In this document: in pieces, positions 17,298-60,692 of the stretch | Numbering within the stretch: position 1 is the stretch's first letter | How the letters are laid out: each line of letters starts with the position of its first letter | IMG/VR virus record: IMGVR_UViG_2571042445_000002 | From: a virus | Taxonomy: Duplodnaviria > Heunggongvirae > Uroviricota > Caudoviricetes | Strand: one strand, 5' to 3' | Length of the DNA: 64,000 bases | The notes under the pieces: generated by a model | Seen by the model: only the letters and a program-made list of their open reading frames with translations | Told to the model about the DNA's origin: nothing | Database searches by the model: none | Program-made: the position numbers and the translations under genes

Positions 17298-17930
17298 GTG
17301 AGTATTTTAAATTCAGTTTCAGTTACTTTCAACACTTCTGAGTATAAAAACAACACTGAATACCACAAAAAAATCAAAGGTCATCAGTTGAGTTTTTTTG
17401 CTCGTCATAGCGGTTTTCTTTCCCCTTCACATAGCGCCATTATTGCCGAGTTCGCCAACCTGGCAGGAGCTACCGATGAATACATGATCCGTCGCTCATA
17501 TGCGGATATGTCCGAGATTACAGGACGCAGTATTTCTACTGTGCGCCGGGCATTTGCCGAAGCGACGAAGTGCGGAATGCTTGTTAAGCAGCATCAGGTA
17601 GCGAATAACAATGCTCAGGTGTGTAACGTGTACCGGTTTACAACACAATTTCTCCACTTCATTCATGTAGCAATGGAGATAGGGAGTAAGCAGGGCATCA
17701 AATTTGCCAACGCCACAAAACTGGTTAAGCAGTTGATTTCAAAGGTTCGTTATTTTTTTGAAACTGGGAACCCCCTGTTCAAATTGAACAAGTCCCCCCA
17801 TGTTCAAAATGAACAGCCAATAGAAAATAAGAGTCACTCTATAGCCAAAAGAAGAGAAAGATCATGCGCGGTTCAGCCAAAGGCTTCACCAGCAGATAGT
17901 TCTCAAGCGGATAATGGGGGGGCTGGATAA
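17298..17930 (+). CDS. HTH protein, possible RepL-like lytic replication protein
   Basis: 210 aa, GTG start; winged-helix-like segment ITGRSISTVRRAFAEATKCGML; downstream of an operator motif as P1 kilA-repL is. Confidence 0.3.
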   Translation: MSILNSVSVTFNTSEYKNNTEYHKKIKGHQLSFFARHSGFLSPSHSAIIAEFANLAGATDEYMIRRSYADMSEITGRSISTVRRAFAEATKCGMLVKQHQVANNNAQVCNVYRFTTQFLHFIHVAMEIGSKQGIKFANATKLVKQLISKVRYFFETGNPLFKLNKSPHVQNEQPIENKSHSIAKRRERSCAVQPKASPADSSQADNGGAG

Positions 17931-18261
17931 AAAACCAGTAATCAGGGAAGAACATACCAACCACTGCCTGGCGGCGGCAAAAGCGAGAGCTGCAAAGCGT
18001 CGTTCAGATGAGGGGCACGCAAAACGGCAGGCTCTGTATCGTACCGCTGAAAAGCTGGCAAAAAAATTTGCATGGATACGTAGTGCCGCTACAGCAGTGA
18101 ATAAGCCTAAACAATCCAGTGCCCTGGATTTCTCAATGGATTATTCTGGCTCCCAGGGGTGTGCAACCATTGGTGAAGCCTTTGACCTGATGAAACAGCG
18201 TGGCTATCGGTCTGAATTTGACCGGGAAGACTGGTCAATTCCGGAGGGCTTTCGGGGATGA
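17914..18261 (+). CDS. basic hypothetical protein
   Basis: 115 aa, overlaps upstream gene. Confidence 0.25.
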   Translation: MGGLDKKPVIREEHTNHCLAAAKARAAKRRSDEGHAKRQALYRTAEKLAKKFAWIRSAATAVNKPKQSSALDFSMDYSGSQGCATIGEAFDLMKQRGYRSEFDREDWSIPEGFRG

Positions 18262-18317: not shown

Positions 18318-18350
18318 ATGTTAGAAAATTAAATTGATGTTTCTAATCAA
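18318..18350. promoter_or_regulatory. operator-like motif pair
   Basis: ATGTTAGAAAATTAAA plus partial inverted copy TTTCTAA. Confidence 0.45.
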
Positions 18351-18539
18351 GAATGTATGATTTATATCGTCACTAAAAAACAGCATCTGATAAAAATTCT
18401 GTTGATCTTTCTAATGTTCAGGCTTATATTCATGCCGTCGTAGCAAATTCTGCGACCGGGTTTAGCAGCCTGAATGTTAGTGCGGACAACCGCAGATATC
18501 CGATATTGCGGTATTTTTGTGTCCGTAAAACCGCGTTAC

Positions 18540-18677
18540 GCCCAAATTATGGTGGGGCGTGATGGGGAGGCTTCGGCCTGCTGGTTTCACTAACGCCAGT
18601 CTGCTAACCCCGTCACGTCCTGCCACCTGTTTAGCAGCGGGTAGCAGGTTGTTAAACCTGTTAGTGAGGCCGTAACT
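18540..18677 (+). ncRNA. candidate c4-like antisense RNA / structured leader
   Basis: hairpins (e.g. gaggc-UUCG-gcctg) in the leader just upstream of icd-like gene. Confidence 0.25.
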
Positions 18678-18902: not shown

Positions 18903-19609
18903 TGGATATCTGCATTCTCGAAAAGCCATCAATGACCAGCATTGAGATCGCGGAGCTGGTGGGAAAACGTCATGACAATGTGAAACGCACTATTGAGACA
19001 TTAGACAAAGGTGGCGTTATTGTTCGTCCTCAAATTGAGGTTTTCGAAAAAATCAATAACTTAGGACTACGACGTAGTGTTGAGGCTTACGTCTTCGAAG
19101 GCGAGCAAGGCAAGCGCGATAGCATTATCGTCGTCGCGCAGCTCTCTCCCGAATTCACCGCCCGGCTGGTGGACCGCTGGCGCGAACTGGAAGAACAAGT
19201 ACGCCAGCCGTTGACCGAAATAGAGATGATCGCTGCAATGGCTGCAAATGCAGTTCAGCAGCAAAAGCGGCTTCATGTTGTTGAGTCAAAGGTTAGCCAG
19301 GTTGCTGAAACCGTCGAGCAGATCAAGAAGGGCAACATGCCAGAAGGTTACATTGGCTATCGTCAGTTAGCGGCGAAATGTGGCCTGACTGAAGCCAAAT
19401 GCCGTAACCTGGTCAACGCTAACCGGATTCCCACAGATACGCATGAGTTTTTGACGCCAGAGGGGGTATTGTCGCGTCGTACTATTGTGGCCTTATCTCC
19501 CTTCATGAATGCCTTTACCCTGATGATGTCGGAGGCTGAACACCGAGGAAAACGCTGGTATCACCCAAGGATGGGACAATTCCAGGTGATCGGTTGGGGA
19601 GGCGAGTGA
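18902..19609 (+). CDS. ant: antirepressor, Rha-family N-terminal domain protein (split form)
   Basis: MTSIEIAELVGKRHDNVKRTIE matches the Rha/antirepressor N-terminal signature. Confidence 0.55.
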   Translation: MDICILEKPSMTSIEIAELVGKRHDNVKRTIETLDKGGVIVRPQIEVFEKINNLGLRRSVEAYVFEGEQGKRDSIIVVAQLSPEFTARLVDRWRELEEQVRQPLTEIEMIAAMAANAVQQQKRLHVVESKVSQVAETVEQIKKGNMPEGYIGYRQLAAKCGLTEAKCRNLVNANRIPTDTHEFLTPEGVLSRRTIVALSPFMNAFTLMMSEAEHRGKRWYHPRMGQFQVIGWGGE

Positions 19610-19806
19610 TGGACATCATGCAGGCGGTAAAAAAAATCAGGGAAGGACAGGCTGAAGTGTGCCGCCGTAAAGCATGGAGTGTTGGTATATGGATCTGGCC
19701 TGATAATTGCTCTACTACCGGATGGTTTTGTATTAATGGATGCCAGATCCGGGAAGTCGATTTATCGACGGCGGATGCAGTCGGTAATGATTGGATCGTA
19801 ACTTGA
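19609..19806 (+). CDS. antirepressor C-terminal domain as a separate coupled ORF
   Basis: ATG at 19609 overlaps upstream stop (TGATG), GGAGG seven nt upstream; product aligns to the C-terminus of the fused Ant at 59736-60662. Confidence 0.4.
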   Translation: MDIMQAVKKIREGQAEVCRRKAWSVGIWIWPDNCSTTGWFCINGCQIREVDLSTADAVGNDWIVT

Positions 19807-19814
19807 AGTGTGAT

Positions 19815-19840
19815 GCCCCGGCCTGGCCGGGGCTTTTTCA
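19815..19840. terminator. bidirectional terminator candidate
   Basis: gccccgg-cctgg-ccggggc followed by TTTTT, between convergent genes. Confidence 0.55.
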
Positions 19841-32515: not shown

Positions 32516-32591
32516 TGATGGTGTAGCTCAGTGGTAGAGCAGTTGGCTGTTAACCAACTGGTCGGTGGTTCGAATCCACTCACCATCGCCA
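32516..32591 (+). tRNA. tRNA-Asn (anticodon GTT)
   Basis: 76 nt; acceptor gatggtg/caccatc, anticodon loop CTGTTAA, T-loop TTCGAAT, 3' CCA encoded. Confidence 0.85.
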
Positions 32592-32593
32592 AT

Positions 32594-32669
32594 GCCGGTT
32601 TAGCTCAGTTGGTAGAGCGCCTGCCTTGTAAGCAGGATGTCAGCGGTTCGAGTCCGTTAACCGGCACCA
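32594..32669 (+). tRNA. tRNA-Thr (anticodon TGT)
   Basis: 76 nt, 2 nt after tRNA-Asn; anticodon loop CTTGTAA; T-loop TTCGAGT; CCA encoded. Confidence 0.85.
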
Positions 32670-33338: not shown

Positions 33339-33414
33339 GGCCCTTTAGCTCAGTGGTTAGAGCGGGCGACTCATAATCGCACGGTCACCGGTTCAAGTCC
33401 GGTAGGGGCCACCA
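33339..33414 (+). tRNA. tRNA-Ile2 (anticodon CAT, lysidine type)
   Basis: 76 nt, nearly identical over D-arm and anticodon arm to E. coli tRNA-Ile2 as I recall it; CCA encoded. Confidence 0.8.
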
Positions 33415-38228: not shown

Positions 38229-39266
38229 TTACCAGAGTTTTGCCGCGTACATCGTTTGTGTGAATGTGTACCCATAGCGTTCTTCAACGCTTTTACCGTA
38301 TTTTTTCCTGGCTTCAGTAAGGCGGATGCCTGTCAGGTCATCGCCGGAGGCAATCATAACTTCCAGTAGTTCCAGGTCCATTTTATCCAGCCTTGCCATT
38401 GCATCTTTAGCCTCTTGAATTTTCCGGCTAACGATCTGGTGTATGGCTGGATCGGCTTCGGCCAGCATTTTATCTGATTTGTTTTTTAAACTCTGATTGC
38501 GGATATCAATGTTTCTCAGGATATATGACTTCACGACGTAGCTTGGCTGCTGCTTTTCCAGATCACGAACCCGATAAAGGTCAAATTCGCCGAGAAGTCC
38601 GCACGGAAGCGGTTTAATGCCAGTGTAAATGGTAAGGGTGCGGCGCTCACCAACGTTGTTAACAACGGGAATCTCTGTGTTTGCTTTTTTTGCAAAGATC
38701 AGCGCACCGTGCGTACCCACTCTGAAGCGTGAAAGTCCATTGTTGCCCTCAATATTGGTGGTAATCACCACATCGGTATAACCTTCTTTTCTTGCGCGGT
38801 ATACCTCGCCCTCACGTTCAGCGGCGAAGAATCTGCGTTCTTCTTCAAGCGCACCGACAACCTGTGAAAATATCCTGTTTTTCATGCTTTTCTTTATAGT
38901 TTTATCGTATTTTTTCAACAGGTCTTCGCGCGTAAATGTTCTCGTTGTGGTTGCGCTTTGCATAACGATATGCGTACTCTGATTAGTATCCTCAACAATG
39001 AATGGGATCGGTAAATAAACCGACTCAACAATGTTTGAGGCTTTGTCATCATCCTTGCGACACAGATCAACAAAGGCTTTCCATTCGGCTATGCATTTTT
39101 CAGCTTCTTCTAATACAGCCGGATCATGTGTTAATGCAACATGGCGAAATTCCTCGCCAACATAACTGGTATCATGGAAAACAGAGTTTGCGACCACCAG
39201 CTCTTTCCACCGTTCAGCGGTTTGCAGGAACCGTTTGTACTCATTCTCGATCGACTTCTTACTCAT
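38229..39266 (-). CDS. candidate master repressor (C1 position); function unproven
   Basis: 345 aa from the internal Met (MSKKSIENEY); convergent with pacB as P1 c1 is; operator motifs in its own 5' region. Confidence 0.3.
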   Translation of the reverse strand: MSKKSIENEYKRFLQTAERWKELVVANSVFHDTSYVGEEFRHVALTHDPAVLEEAEKCIAEWKAFVDLCRKDDDKASNIVESVYLPIPFIVEDTNQSTHIVMQSATTTRTFTREDLLKKYDKTIKKSMKNRIFSQVVGALEEERRFFAAEREGEVYRARKEGYTDVVITTNIEGNNGLSRFRVGTHGALIFAKKANTEIPVVNNVGERRTLTIYTGIKPLPCGLLGEFDLYRVRDLEKQQPSYVVKSYILRNIDIRNQSLKNKSDKMLAEADPAIHQIVSRKIQEAKDAMARLDKMDLELLEVMIASGDDLTGIRLTEARKKYGKSVEERYGYTFTQTMYAAKLW

Positions 39267-58720: not shown

Positions 58721-59369
58721 TTAAGTTGAATTGTGAGATTCGCCGTTGTACATTCACAACCGATTGGTACACCGGTCAACTTTTTGAGACAAACCGTTTG
58801 GTTTTTCGTATGATTGCCGCCGCCATACCAATGGCGGTGCAATATAGGTGGCTGAAAAGCCCCCGTTGACTCACGGTGTTCCAACCTTTATTGCGCCGCC
58901 ACCAGACCGTGGAACAGTCGATGGCGGCTCCGAAAGCAAGGAGTCACTACACTATGAACAGCTACTGTCTTTTCCCATCACTCGTTGTCCGCCACTCACG
59001 CGATAATCTGCATTCTTTACTCGCGCTGGGGGTGTCAAAATGACCGTTCGCTACCTCAACTTTCAAATCCAGAACATCACTGGCGGTTGCTATGACTGGT
59101 TTGTCACTCTCGGAAAAGAAGTGATCACCGGAAAGCTGGATGAAGTGAAAGCTAAAGCAATGGCCTACGCCTGCAAGCAAGCCCAAAAGAAGAAAAGAAA
59201 AGCATAAGAAAACACACAGTTGCGCCCTGGCATTATCGTGGGGTATATTTCTACGGCACCTTAGAAAAACGGGTGCCGGGATTGGAACCCCGGATAATGT
59301 CAAAGGCGACACAGACGCCGAACGCGTCTTTTTTTGTGTCATGCCATCGCACAGCCATACTTAGCGTTT

Positions 59370-59520
59370 AGCTCAGAGATCAATGGTAGTGCTGGCTGGG
59401 CTGCCGAAAGGCAGGCCGGTTCCCTTTGACGCCGGTAGTTCCAACCCAGTCAGTGCTACCGCCATTGAGATTGGAACCTCACGCGGTAGCTCCTTAACTT
59501 AGTCAAAGGAGGCTGCCAAT
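59370..59520 (+). ncRNA. candidate c4-like antisense RNA / structured leader (copy 2)
   Basis: hairpins (ctgcc-GAAA-ggcag) upstream of the second icd-like gene. Confidence 0.25.
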
Positions 59521-59736
59521 ATGGCTACTATCCCTACCCCAACTCATTCTGAATTTATCTGGCGTTTCTATTCCTGCCAAAAACACCTGTATATCTGCGT
59601 CATGGCTGCAACCGAAGCAGAAGCGCGCTCATACCTTCCCGAAGAACCCTGCATTTTTGCTGCTCGCTTCACTCTTGATGCGATGGAGATCCTCAATTAC
59701 TGGAATCTGCCAATGAACTGCGTGGAGGTGCACTGA
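59521..59736 (+). CDS. Icd-like small protein (copy 2)
   Basis: 71 aa, shares SEFIWRF...CQKH...AATEAEAR with the copy at 18678; stop overlaps ant start. Confidence 0.4.
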   Translation: MATIPTPTHSEFIWRFYSCQKHLYICVMAATEAEARSYLPEEPCIFAARFTLDAMEILNYWNLPMNCVEVH

Positions 59737-60662
59737 TGAATCTGTCCATCTCTCAAAAAGCGACAATGACCAGTATTGAGATCGCGGAGCTGGTGGGTAA
59801 GCGTCCTGACAACGTTAAACGCACCATTGAACACCTGGCGGAACGGGGCGTAATAACTTTTCCTCAAATTGAGGAAAAGCCCACTGCAGGCCGCCCGGCG
59901 AGCTATTACGTCTTCGAAGGCGAACAAGGCAAGCGCGATAGTATTATCGTCGTCGCGCAGCTCTCTCCCGAATTCACCGCCCGGCTGGTGGACCGCTGGC
60001 GCGAACTGGAGAATGCCAGAGGACCGTTAAAATCAAAAGCCGAAATTCTGGCCGAAATGGCGCAAATGCATCTTGAGCATGAACGCCGGATCAACGCCGT
60101 TAATACCCAGGTAGCCGAAGTATCGGCACAAGTGACCAAAGTCGCTGAAACCGTCGAGCAAATAAAGAAAGGCAATATTCCGGAAGGCTACATTGGCTAT
60201 CGCCAGTTAGCGGCGAAATGCGGCCTGACTGAAGCCAAATGCCGCAACCTGGTCAACGCTTACCGGATCCCCACAGATACGCATGAGTTTTTAACTCCCG
60301 ATGGTTTGCTTGCGAGACGCTCCATTGTGGCCCTGGCCCCCTTCCGGAAAGCCTTTAAGCAGGTTATGTCGGAGGCTGAACCACGCAACAAACGCTGGTA
60401 TCATCCCAGGATGGGGCTATTTCAGGCCATTCACCATCCTGTGCCTGAAAGTCCAAAGGCAAACCTGTCGTTGCATACCGCCAGAGAGAAGATTAAAACA
60501 GGGTATGCAACCGTATGCCGTCGAGCATCCTGGCCTGAAAGTGTCTGGGTATGGCCCGAAAGAGGCTCACGGAAAAACTGGCGCACCTTTCGCGACGGCA
60601 AGATCTGTGCGATTGATTTACAGCCAGAAGATGTAGCAGCGACCGACTGGATTGTTAGTTAA
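59736..60662 (+). CDS. ant: antirepressor, Rha-family (fused form)
   Basis: 308 aa; N-terminal MTSIEIAELVGKRPDNVKRTIE; about 100-bp stretches identical to copy 1. Confidence 0.6.
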   Translation: MNLSISQKATMTSIEIAELVGKRPDNVKRTIEHLAERGVITFPQIEEKPTAGRPASYYVFEGEQGKRDSIIVVAQLSPEFTARLVDRWRELENARGPLKSKAEILAEMAQMHLEHERRINAVNTQVAEVSAQVTKVAETVEQIKKGNIPEGYIGYRQLAAKCGLTEAKCRNLVNAYRIPTDTHEFLTPDGLLARRSIVALAPFRKAFKQVMSEAEPRNKRWYHPRMGLFQAIHHPVPESPKANLSLHTAREKIKTGYATVCRRASWPESVWVWPERGSRKNWRTFRDGKICAIDLQPEDVAATDWIVS

Positions 60663-60669
60663 TAGATTT

Positions 60670-60692
60670 GCCCCGGTCATGCCGGGGCTTTA
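60670..60692 (+). terminator. terminator candidate after ant
   Basis: ccccgg-tcatg-ccgggg followed by CTTT. Confidence 0.4.

Follow-up and report, generated by a model that had tools for sequence, protein, structure and literature searches.

Architecture of the two modules

The 64,000-nt stretch of DNA analysed here (the window; IMG/VR record IMGVR_UViG_2571042445_000002) carries two modules in which a small Icd-like open reading frame (ORF) precedes a gene of the Rha family, and our main subject is the second of them, at 59220-60690. There, an IsrK-type leader, the gene of a C4-class antisense RNA (C4-2), the target sites of this RNA, icd2 and ant2 follow one another on the plus strand (Table 1). 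We consider it likely that this region represents a second operon like P1 immI, intact and carried by a D6-like phage-plasmid, and that it stands under its own C4-class antisense RNA. The family membership and structure of the RNAs, the complementarity and covariation of their pairing sites, the intact coupled ORFs and the conservation of the whole are matters of direct observation. An earlier note on this DNA had described a second icd-ant module 41 kb from the first, with a structured leader, an Icd-like ORF overlapping the ant start and a Rha-family gene in each. Both modules indeed lie on the plus strand with homologous positions offset by 40,819-40,834 nt, and Rfam C4 matches, ORFs and Pfam agree with this composition. 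The start assigned to module 2 in that note, 59370, however, had to be corrected, as the module opens further upstream, at about 59220, with the IsrK-type leader.

This leader matches the Rfam isrK model (RF01394) at 59256-59334 with 61.3 bits (gathering score 50) and the c4-a1b1 model below threshold (22.4 bits, E=0.0014), and is made up of two hairpins, the second of which has site a1 in its loop, followed by site b1 and an intrinsic terminator. Upstream of it lies a putative promoter whose hexamers are conserved in position in D6 and RCS47. C4-2 folds into the canonical C4 shape with a minimum free energy of -46.5 kcal/mol (z=-5.0 against shuffles). The target site b2 overlaps the Shine-Dalgarno sequence GGAGG of icd2 (59508-59512). 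In Ant2, a Rha domain at the N-terminus (aa 11-93) is followed by a central part in common with Ant1 and by a C-terminal candidate for a DUF2829/Tad2-like domain. The terminator scan made no call at the hairpin that follows ant2, the T-run of which is weak.

In module 1 the leader is recognized by the c4-a1b1 model (Table 1) and, slightly below the gathering score of 50, by the isrK model (18437-18518, 46.0 bits, E=5e-9), and C4-1, which like C4-2 takes the canonical C4 shape and leaves a' and b' unpaired, is about 90% identical to the c4 RNAs of P1 and P7. The last 65 codons, which are fused to ant in module 2, form a translationally coupled ORF of their own in module 1. We rejected decay of module 1 as an explanation, since the split into ant1 and a 65-aa ORF is found in identical arrangement in D6 and in plasmid NZ_CP085065.1.

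Table 1. Features of modules 2 and 1 in the window
Feature	Position	Strand	Basis or remark
Module 2 putative promoter, TTGCGC-18 nt-TATATT	59220-59249	+	read from sequence; 7 nt before first base of isrK match
Module 2 IsrK-type leader (a1b1 element)	59256-59336	+	Rfam isrK, terminator scan, fold
Module 2 a1, TTGGAAC	59282-59288	+	hairpin loop
Module 2 b1, GTCAAAGG	59299-59306	+	
Module 2 leader intrinsic terminator hairpin	59313-59329	+	terminator scan; followed by T7 run
C4-2 antisense RNA	59379-59466	+	Rfam RF01695, 77.1 bits (gathering score 45), E=2e-13
C4-2 b', CCTTTGAC	59423-59430	+	hairpin loop
C4-2 a', GTTCCAA	59438-59444	+	unpaired junction
Module 2 targets a2 and b2	59471-59512	+	a2 59471-59477, b2 59502-59509; exact complements of a', b'
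icd2, Icd-like leader ORF, 71 aa	59521-59736	+	ORF list; 56% identical to P1 Icd; PHROG 1426, E=4e-41
ant2, 308 aa	59736-60662	+	1 nt common with icd2 (TGATG overlap)
Candidate DUF2829/Tad2-like domain of ant2	aa 247-307, ~nt 60474-60656	+	PHROG 7385
GC-rich hairpin after ant2, GCCCCGG-tcatg-CCGGGGC	60670-60688	+	homologous to module 1 terminator by alignment
Module 1 tandem promoter-like sites	18334-18361 and 18402-18430	+	promoter scan; positions of P1 P2c4 and P1c4 by alignment with annotated P1 promoters
Module 1 a1b1 leader	18424-18519	+	Rfam c4-a1b1, 53.9 bits (match 18424-18476)
Module 1 a1, TTAGCAG	18462-18468	+	
Module 1 b1, GTTAGTG(C)	18476-18483	+	
Module 1 terminator-like hairpin	18490-18511	+	followed by TATTTTTG
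C4-1 antisense RNA	18545-18630	+	Rfam RF01695, 70 bits (gathering score 45); fold z=-5.3
C4-1 b', TCACTAAC	18587-18594	+	
C4-1 a', CTGCTAA	18601-18607	+	
Module 1 targets a2 and b2	18631-18669	+	a2 18631-18637, b2 18660-18667; b2 overlaps icd1 Shine-Dalgarno
icd1, 74 aa	18678-18902	+	ORF list; TGATG overlap with ant1
ant1, Rha family, 235 aa	18902-19609	+	
65-aa ORF coupled to ant1	19609-19806	+	TGATG overlap; homologous to ant2 C-terminus; possible DUF2829/Tad2-like fold
Intrinsic terminator after module 1	19815-19833	+	terminator scan: 8 GC pairs, then TTTTT
Near-identical tract of the two modules	19087-19191 = 59906-60010	+	105 nt, 2 mismatches

In a comparison with Escherichia phage D6 (MF356679), 91% of the module 2 query aligned at 92% nucleotide identity and 100% of the module 1 query at 90%, and the D6 annotation has icd-like genes and a 'putative anti-repressor' at both loci (orf83/82 and orf19/18/17). 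In PLSDB, full-length module 2 is present in 91 plasmids and full-length module 1 in 110, most of them non-mobilizable plasmids of 89-96 kb from E. coli and Salmonella; in the nearest relative, NZ_CP085065.1, the distance between the modules is about 41 kb, the same as in the window. On the strength of these matches the window is identified by sequence as a D6-like phage-plasmid. Since both modules recur in D6 and together in at least 91 of the PLSDB plasmids, the double module is a conserved trait of the D6-like family and not peculiar to this replicon. It is known from the literature as well, where a second c4/icd region of the D6-like plasmid pYU39_89 was mentioned in 2019 (PMC6799933).

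Specificity and covariation of the recognition sites

In each module, segments a' and b' of the C4 RNA are exactly complementary to both copies of their sites, a1/a2 and b1/b2 (7 + 8 nt in module 2), and the same exact agreement of a1, a' and a2 and of b1, b' and b2 is found in D6, RCS47, P1 and P7 (Table 2). Module 1 combines the a allele of P7 with the b allele of P1. The two modules of the window differ from one another at 3 of 7 positions in a and at 4 of 8 in b. Cognate site duplexes have energies of -8.7 to -13.4 kcal/mol (-8.8 for a2 and -12.7 for b2 of module 2), whereas the best cross-module site pairings reach -4.3 to -7.5 kcal/mol and are out of register. For this comparison site-level duplex energies were used in place of RNAcofold, which did not discriminate between full-length C4 RNAs and their targets (-1 to -3 kcal/mol for all pairs) because the loop-loop pairing is a pseudoknot. 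Judged by its sites, module 2 has an RNA specificity of its own that is not expected to cross-react with that of module 1. The divergence of the leaders pointed out in the earlier note is equally real, the module 2 leader being of the isrK lineage and 35-55% identical to that of module 1. The dual immunity specificity proposed there holds at the level of the RNA, by site differences and duplex energies, whereas for immunity itself it is an analogy only.

Table 2. Recognition alleles of the window modules and of reference elements
Element	a	b
Window module 1	TTAGCAG	GTTAGTG
Window module 2	TTGGAAC	GTCAAAGG
P1	TTGACAG	GTTAGTG
P7	TTAGCAG	GATTGTG
D6 module 1	TTGACAG	ACTTACG
D6 module 2	TTGAGAC	GCAAAAGG
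RCS47 second module	TTGAGAC	GTCAAAGG

Related leaders were collected by two scans of IMG/VR, seeded with the exact 36-37-nt conserved 5' half of each C4 type. All 118 leaders of type 1 (P1-like) are concordant and show 11 combinations of 2 a and 6 b alleles, and 72 of the 74 leaders of type 2 (isrK+C4) are fully concordant, with all four combinations of 2 a and 2 b alleles present. In other words, the three copies of each site switch jointly in 190 of 192 leaders. In the two discordant type-2 leaders (among loci L006-L076) only a1 deviates from a' and a2, which may reflect either a weaker constraint on a1 or a recombination breakpoint that separates the IsrK-like leader from C4. Inside the transcribed leaders the variation clusters at the a and b sites. 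These lie only 8-22 nt apart and yet occur in nearly all combinations, while copies of one site 140-190 nt apart stay in agreement. Neighbouring alleles that are reshuffled and distant copies that remain concordant require selection for pairing, and by this sequence criterion both modules must be functional antisense systems. The antisense-target complementarity on which the earlier note had made its proposal depend is therefore present in both leaders and covaries across the related ones.

Might module 2 nevertheless be no more than a duplicate of module 1, redundant or in decay and without an independent function? The genes of the two modules are paralogous, with 68% amino acid identity, near-identical tracts are common to both, and of the 110 plasmids in which module 1 is complete about 19 are without a full-length match to module 2. 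Against such a duplicate, however, speaks that every ORF of module 2 is intact, that its leader belongs to another lineage and has its own concordant a and b sites covarying in the population, that both C4 RNAs score far above the gathering threshold, and that the module has been kept in D6 and in 91 plasmids. Clear decay of one copy, which the earlier note had considered, is accordingly not what we find, both copies having intact ORFs and being retained in D6 and in 91-110 plasmids, and we regard a redundant duplicate as very improbable.

Several modules in one replicon are not restricted to the D6-like family. At least two C4 modules are carried by 28 of 160 IMG/VR contigs, one of the 28 having the same module at both contig ends. 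Some P1-like contigs contain three type-1 modules, and one of these has a type-2 module besides; these P1-like contigs are represented by loci L057/L139/L193 (IMGVR_UViG_2713896909_000009), L088/L149/L175 and L125/L171/L192. Co-resident type-1 modules have distinct b alleles in five of five contigs, an observation that is only suggestive (random-draw P=0.053). Type-1 leaders precede a P1-type Ant, an RCS47-type Ant or a D6 Rha-type Ant, and type-2 leaders an RCS47-type Ant or a 308-aa Rha-type Ant.

The IsrK-type leader and the a1b1 element

The isrK+C4 lineage to which the module 2 leader belongs is also found in Shiga toxin (Stx) phages, in phiP27 and in Gifsy-1. In Gifsy-1 (L199, NC_010392; 34076-34329, minus strand) isrK scores 79 bits and is overlapped by a c4-a1b1 match of 48 bits, which is above the gathering score, and a C4 RNA of 69 bits lies between isrK and the Rha-like gene anrP. 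The Gifsy-1 sites, TTGGCGT for a and ATCACCG for b, occur in three copies each, all of them in agreement. In the study of IsrK the base pairs G28-C162 and G31-C159 were proven by compensatory mutation (PMC4825925, Table 1D); mapped on the Gifsy-1 sequence, these pairs are located at a1 and a', and the published 'orf45' overlies C4. IsrK supplied in trans raised downstream translation more than 100-fold, and the Rha-like AnrP was found to activate antQ (PMC4825925). The terms 'phage P1' and 'icd' are absent from that paper, and the published model is without C4, P1 or icd; likewise, a 2025 review has IsrK and c4 as separate entries, and in Rfam the isrK family is no part of the C4 clan. In the literature searched, P1 c4/a1b1 and Salmonella IsrK thus appear to have been handled as separate topics. 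On sequence and layout the IsrK-type leader of module 2 is a homologue of the a1b1 element of P1 type. The isrK/a1b1/C4 layout of Gifsy-1, together with the more than 100-fold activation by IsrK in trans, suggests that a1b1 leaders act as C4 decoys, a role that the element in the window may share by analogy.

In a further member of this lineage, the lambdoid Stx2 phage F039 (L196, 1800-2060), an isrK-C4 leader stands directly before a coding sequence of 215 aa, without a separate icd; the predicted protein starts MATIP..., like Icd2. The a and b alleles of F039 are a further set, TTAGGAC and CAATCAAGG, and b1 and b2 differ there at one position, at which G-U wobble pairing with b' is still possible.

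Public records place protein genes over the C4 RNA gene of module 2. The Prokaryotic Genome Annotation Pipeline (PGAP) calls a 39-codon 'ash family protein' (window 59384-59503; L200 1384-1503), and in D6 a minus-strand gene, orf84 (L001 3966-4265), is annotated over C4-2. The 39-codon ORF is in the same position as orf45 of Gifsy-1 and the old 'ash/cI' ORF of P4. Probably, the 'ash family protein' and orf84 are RNA genes mis-annotated as proteins, yet orf45 has been reported as translated.

Cargo genes and the question of immunity

Icd1 and Icd2 share 54-56% identity with P1 Icd. Ant1 and Ant2 match the Pfam family Phage_pRha (PF09669) with 36.6 and 30.6 bits, respectively, both above the cut-off of 29.9; both carry winged-helix/helix-turn-helix signatures, and Ant2 matches PHROG 63 'anti-repressor Ant' with E=6e-62.

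Several observations weigh against taking module 2 as an immunity determinant under C4 control. P1 Ant1 had no tblastn match in the window, the two Ants being of the Rha family and unrelated to P1 Ant1/2. The sole C1-like gene of the window (38556-39248, minus strand) is just 22% identical over 241 aa to the P1-type C1 of RCS47, and a search of the window for the P1-consensus C1 operator with up to 3 mismatches gave no match. A repeat at both promoters of module 1, TTGATNTTTCTAAT, is not enriched in the window (6 matches with at most 2 mismatches against 2.9 expected). The Rha-like AnrP of Gifsy-1 acts on antQ and not on a prophage repressor (PMC4825925). As regards control by C4, the candidate promoter of module 2 is weak by consensus and falls under the threshold of the consensus scan, and our survey of leaders, owing to its exact-core seeds, covers close relatives only, with part of C4 fixed by the seed and many rows related by descent. 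The regulatory architecture as such is well supported. The label 'immunity module', by contrast, is a plausible analogy, because the Ants are unrelated to those of P1.

Beside these points stand some observations on the candidate immunity genes themselves. The C1-like gene lies about midway between the two modules. Homologues of P1 Ant, KilA and Coi are absent from the window. The count of the repeat TTGATNTTTCTAAT in the window is no evidence for an operator, as 10 of 100 shuffles reach it.

The C-terminus of Ant2 and the 65-aa ORF of module 1 resemble each other and may share a further fold. A match to the DUF2829/Tad2-like family PF11195 covers the full profile length but remains below the cut-off (16.9 bits against 25, E=0.0095). 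An AlphaFold model reached a predicted local distance difference test (pLDDT) score of 78.5 on an alignment that is shallow because the family of the 65-aa ORF is small (3 close matches in a word-indexed protein search, 8 proteins in an exhaustive profile search). Foldseek against PDB returned Tad2 for all of the top nine matches, all of them weak (E=0.18-0.6), and sequence searches of PDB gave no match. As the three weak signals agree, a Tad2-like/DUF2829 fold of the 65-aa ORF and of the Ant2 C-terminus is plausible. AcrIIA7 is likewise a member of the DUF2829 family.

These properties of the cargo bear on the one alternative that we take seriously, although we judge it unlikely, namely that module 2 is a genuine C4/IsrK operon but no immunity determinant. 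It would then be a lambdoid cassette resembling IsrK-AnrP, expressed briefly before C4 accumulates, and its DNA-binding Rha-family product and the DUF2829-like domain would have some other role early in infection, for example activation of another phage promoter, arrest of the host via Icd, or counter-defence. The isrK+C4 lineage of the leader, the activation of antQ by AnrP, the winged-helix/helix-turn-helix signatures of both Ants and the resemblance of the Ant2 C-terminal domain to Tad2 and AcrIIA7 would all fit such a cassette, as would the four or more cargo genes, unrelated or diverged, to which C4-icd leaders are joined. Then again, PHROG 63 and families related to it have the annotation of anti-repressors, and Ant2 shares 68% identity with Ant1, the latter holding the canonical place beside a repL-like gene; the evidence for DUF2829 is sub-threshold by every method, and no target promoter was identified. 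We continue to favour an operon of the immI type.

Recombination between the modules and neighbouring genes

The earlier note had also pointed to stretches of about 100 bp, identical between the modules, as substrates for inversion or deletion. A shared tract does exist, although it is not strictly identical (Table 1); the longest stretch in it without a mismatch measures 68 nt (19124-19191), and each copy contains a Chi site (19165-19172 and 59984-59991). Two more blocks of high identity, at about 18930-18975 and 19300-19450, stand out in the otherwise diverged pair of modules. Inversion was rejected, as both copies lie on the plus strand and hence form direct repeats, which leaves deletion, duplication or gene conversion as possible outcomes.

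Would the pair then be chiefly structural, its direct repeats and Chi sites serving as RecBCD/RecA substrates that delete or resolve the 41-kb interval? The 68-nt exact run, the 98% identity over 105 nt, the direct orientation and the Chi site in each copy are what such a device would need. Chi (GCTGGTGG), however, is enriched window-wide and not at the tracts specifically: the window contains 38 sites, 26 of them on the plus strand, against 1.9 expected from shuffles, a 20-fold excess that none of 100 shuffles came near. Two Chi sites fall in each ant gene, within the blocks of highest identity (18955 and 19165 in ant1, 59789 and 59984 in ant2). The P1 genome is reportedly similarly rich in Chi. 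Synonymous polymorphisms common to both ant paralogues, a divergence of the tract that varies between 1 and 16 differences depending on the element, and a natural chimera argue, at the sequence level, for occasional exchange between the paralogues. The chimera, locus L078 (from 4648 in IMGVR_UViG_3300013958_000038), has a type-1, P1-like leader followed by an ant gene of 313 aa that joins the two module types, its product showing 86% identity with Ant2 and 84% with Ant1. Gene conversion in situ was not borne out by tract differences, which averaged 7.0 within and 8.8 between elements and were not significantly lower within them (P=0.09, 7 pairs). No deletion derivative was found either, 74-kb plasmids retaining both copies, and a 41-kb deletion would take out essential phage genes. 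A chiefly structural role of the pair seems hardly credible to us.

Directly upstream of module 1, a repL-like lytic replication gene (17298-18261) is broken into ORFs of 210 and 115 aa by one extra G in a G7 run (17916-17922), where D6 and NZ_CP085065.1 have an intact ORF of 320 aa. This is either a sequencing error or the mark of a truly defective lytic replicon. Three tRNA genes are located on the plus strand at 32517-32588, 32594-32666 and 33339-33411 (Rfam tRNA, 67-75 bits).

Proposed mechanism and significance

The mechanism that we propose for the immI-type operon of module 2 follows that of P1 immI (PMC8198154 and P1 annotation); RNA processing, termination polarity, the decoy role and the target of the antirepressor are inferred. 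Transcription would begin near 59256, and part of the transcripts would end at the terminator (59313-59336) to give an IsrK-like RNA of about 80 nt with a1 and b1. Read-through transcripts would contain C4-2, a2/b2, icd2 and ant2. From these C4-2 would be cut out, and its exposed a' and b' segments would pair with a2 and b2 and thereby mask the ribosome binding site of icd2. With icd2 untranslated the coupled ant2 would not be produced, by a route that in P1 combines translational coupling and Rho-dependent polarity. The a1/b1 leader would bind the same segments of C4 and could, as a competitor, lift repression in cis or in trans. Since the recognition sequences of modules 1 and 2 mismatch, the two locks would be independent, and a superinfecting relative would be silenced only if the resident has a matching C4 for each module of that relative. 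Once made, Ant2, a Rha-family protein with a DUF2829-like tail, might antagonise the C1-like repressor or otherwise favour lytic development.

More tentatively, and with a good deal less confidence than we have in the nature of module 2 itself, we suggest that C4-icd leaders in general are portable, 'bar-coded' translational locks, which phage-plasmids stack, two to four at a time and mutually orthogonal, before different anti-immunity cargoes, so that the combination would decide on immunity among relatives. In each lock an IsrK-type decoy would go together with a C4 RNA and its target site; the specificity would be set by a few nucleotides, the a and b alleles, which are reshuffled under diversifying selection. 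IsrK of Salmonella would be the a1b1 decoy of such a lock, which would give the long-unexplained a1/b1 sites of P1 a function, and the cargo might include an anti-defence domain of the DUF2829 (Tad2/AcrIIA7-like) type that is expressed only before C4 accumulates.

Among D6-like phage-plasmids a second module as such is conserved and nothing unusual. What this work adds is a specificity code that is orthogonal between the modules and covaries, a correction of the module boundaries and the connection between IsrK and a1b1. The recognition sites of C4-class RNAs appear to form a small combinatorial code, so that one element may hold several locks that do not cross-react. Resistance genes are often found on P1-like and D6-like plasmids, and reading the a and b alleles might allow heteroimmunity groups among these plasmids to be predicted from sequence alone.

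Comparison with known systems

The CI RNA of P4 and the CA RNA of N15 are processed RNAs of the C4 class that control anti-immunity genes via repeated target sites and act chiefly by transcription termination. To our knowledge neither has an icd-ant coupling of the module type. The C4-2 half of the module 2 leader matches the cI region of P4 at 72% identity.

With immI of P1 and P7 the modules share the order a1 b1 - C4 - a2 b2 - icd - ant, and the module 1 leader is about 90% identical to theirs. In these phages C4 blocks the ribosome binding site of icd, and a few nucleotides of a and b set the specificity, P1 and P7 differing by 2+2 nt. Different from P1 and P7 however, the window has Rha-family Ants that are not homologous to P1 Ant1/2, is without a P1-type C1 operator and has two modules, whereas the module 1 query matched each reference genome once.

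The second ant module of RCS47, located between pacB and c1, has a type-2 (isrK+C4) leader that is 95% identical to that of the window and likewise stands beside a P1-type immI in the same replicon. It differs in its cargo, a P1-Ant-like protein of 371 aa, in its a allele (TTGAGAC) and in its genomic position.

In Gifsy-1, IsrK-orf45-AnrP resembles module 2 in that an IsrK-type leader with a terminator is followed by a C4-class RNA and then by a Rha-like gene, the ribosome binding site of which is covered by b2, and orf45 is the equivalent of the 39-codon 'ash family' ORF that PGAP draws over C4 of D6-like plasmids. An icd gene, however, is missing from Gifsy-1; 'orf45' lies across the C4 structure there and is coupled straight to anrP, where the window has icd in between, and the known output of AnrP is the activation of antQ.

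The closest counterpart is orf83/orf82 of phage D6, the orthologue of module 2, where the order of ref, small ORFs, leader, icd, ant and a pmgF-like gene is the same and the Ant is likewise of the fused form (308-313 aa). The D6 record has neither RNA annotated and instead draws the minus-strand orf84 across the leader. What sets the two elements apart is their recognition code, as the window has other alleles than D6 at all four determinants, the a and b sites of both modules.

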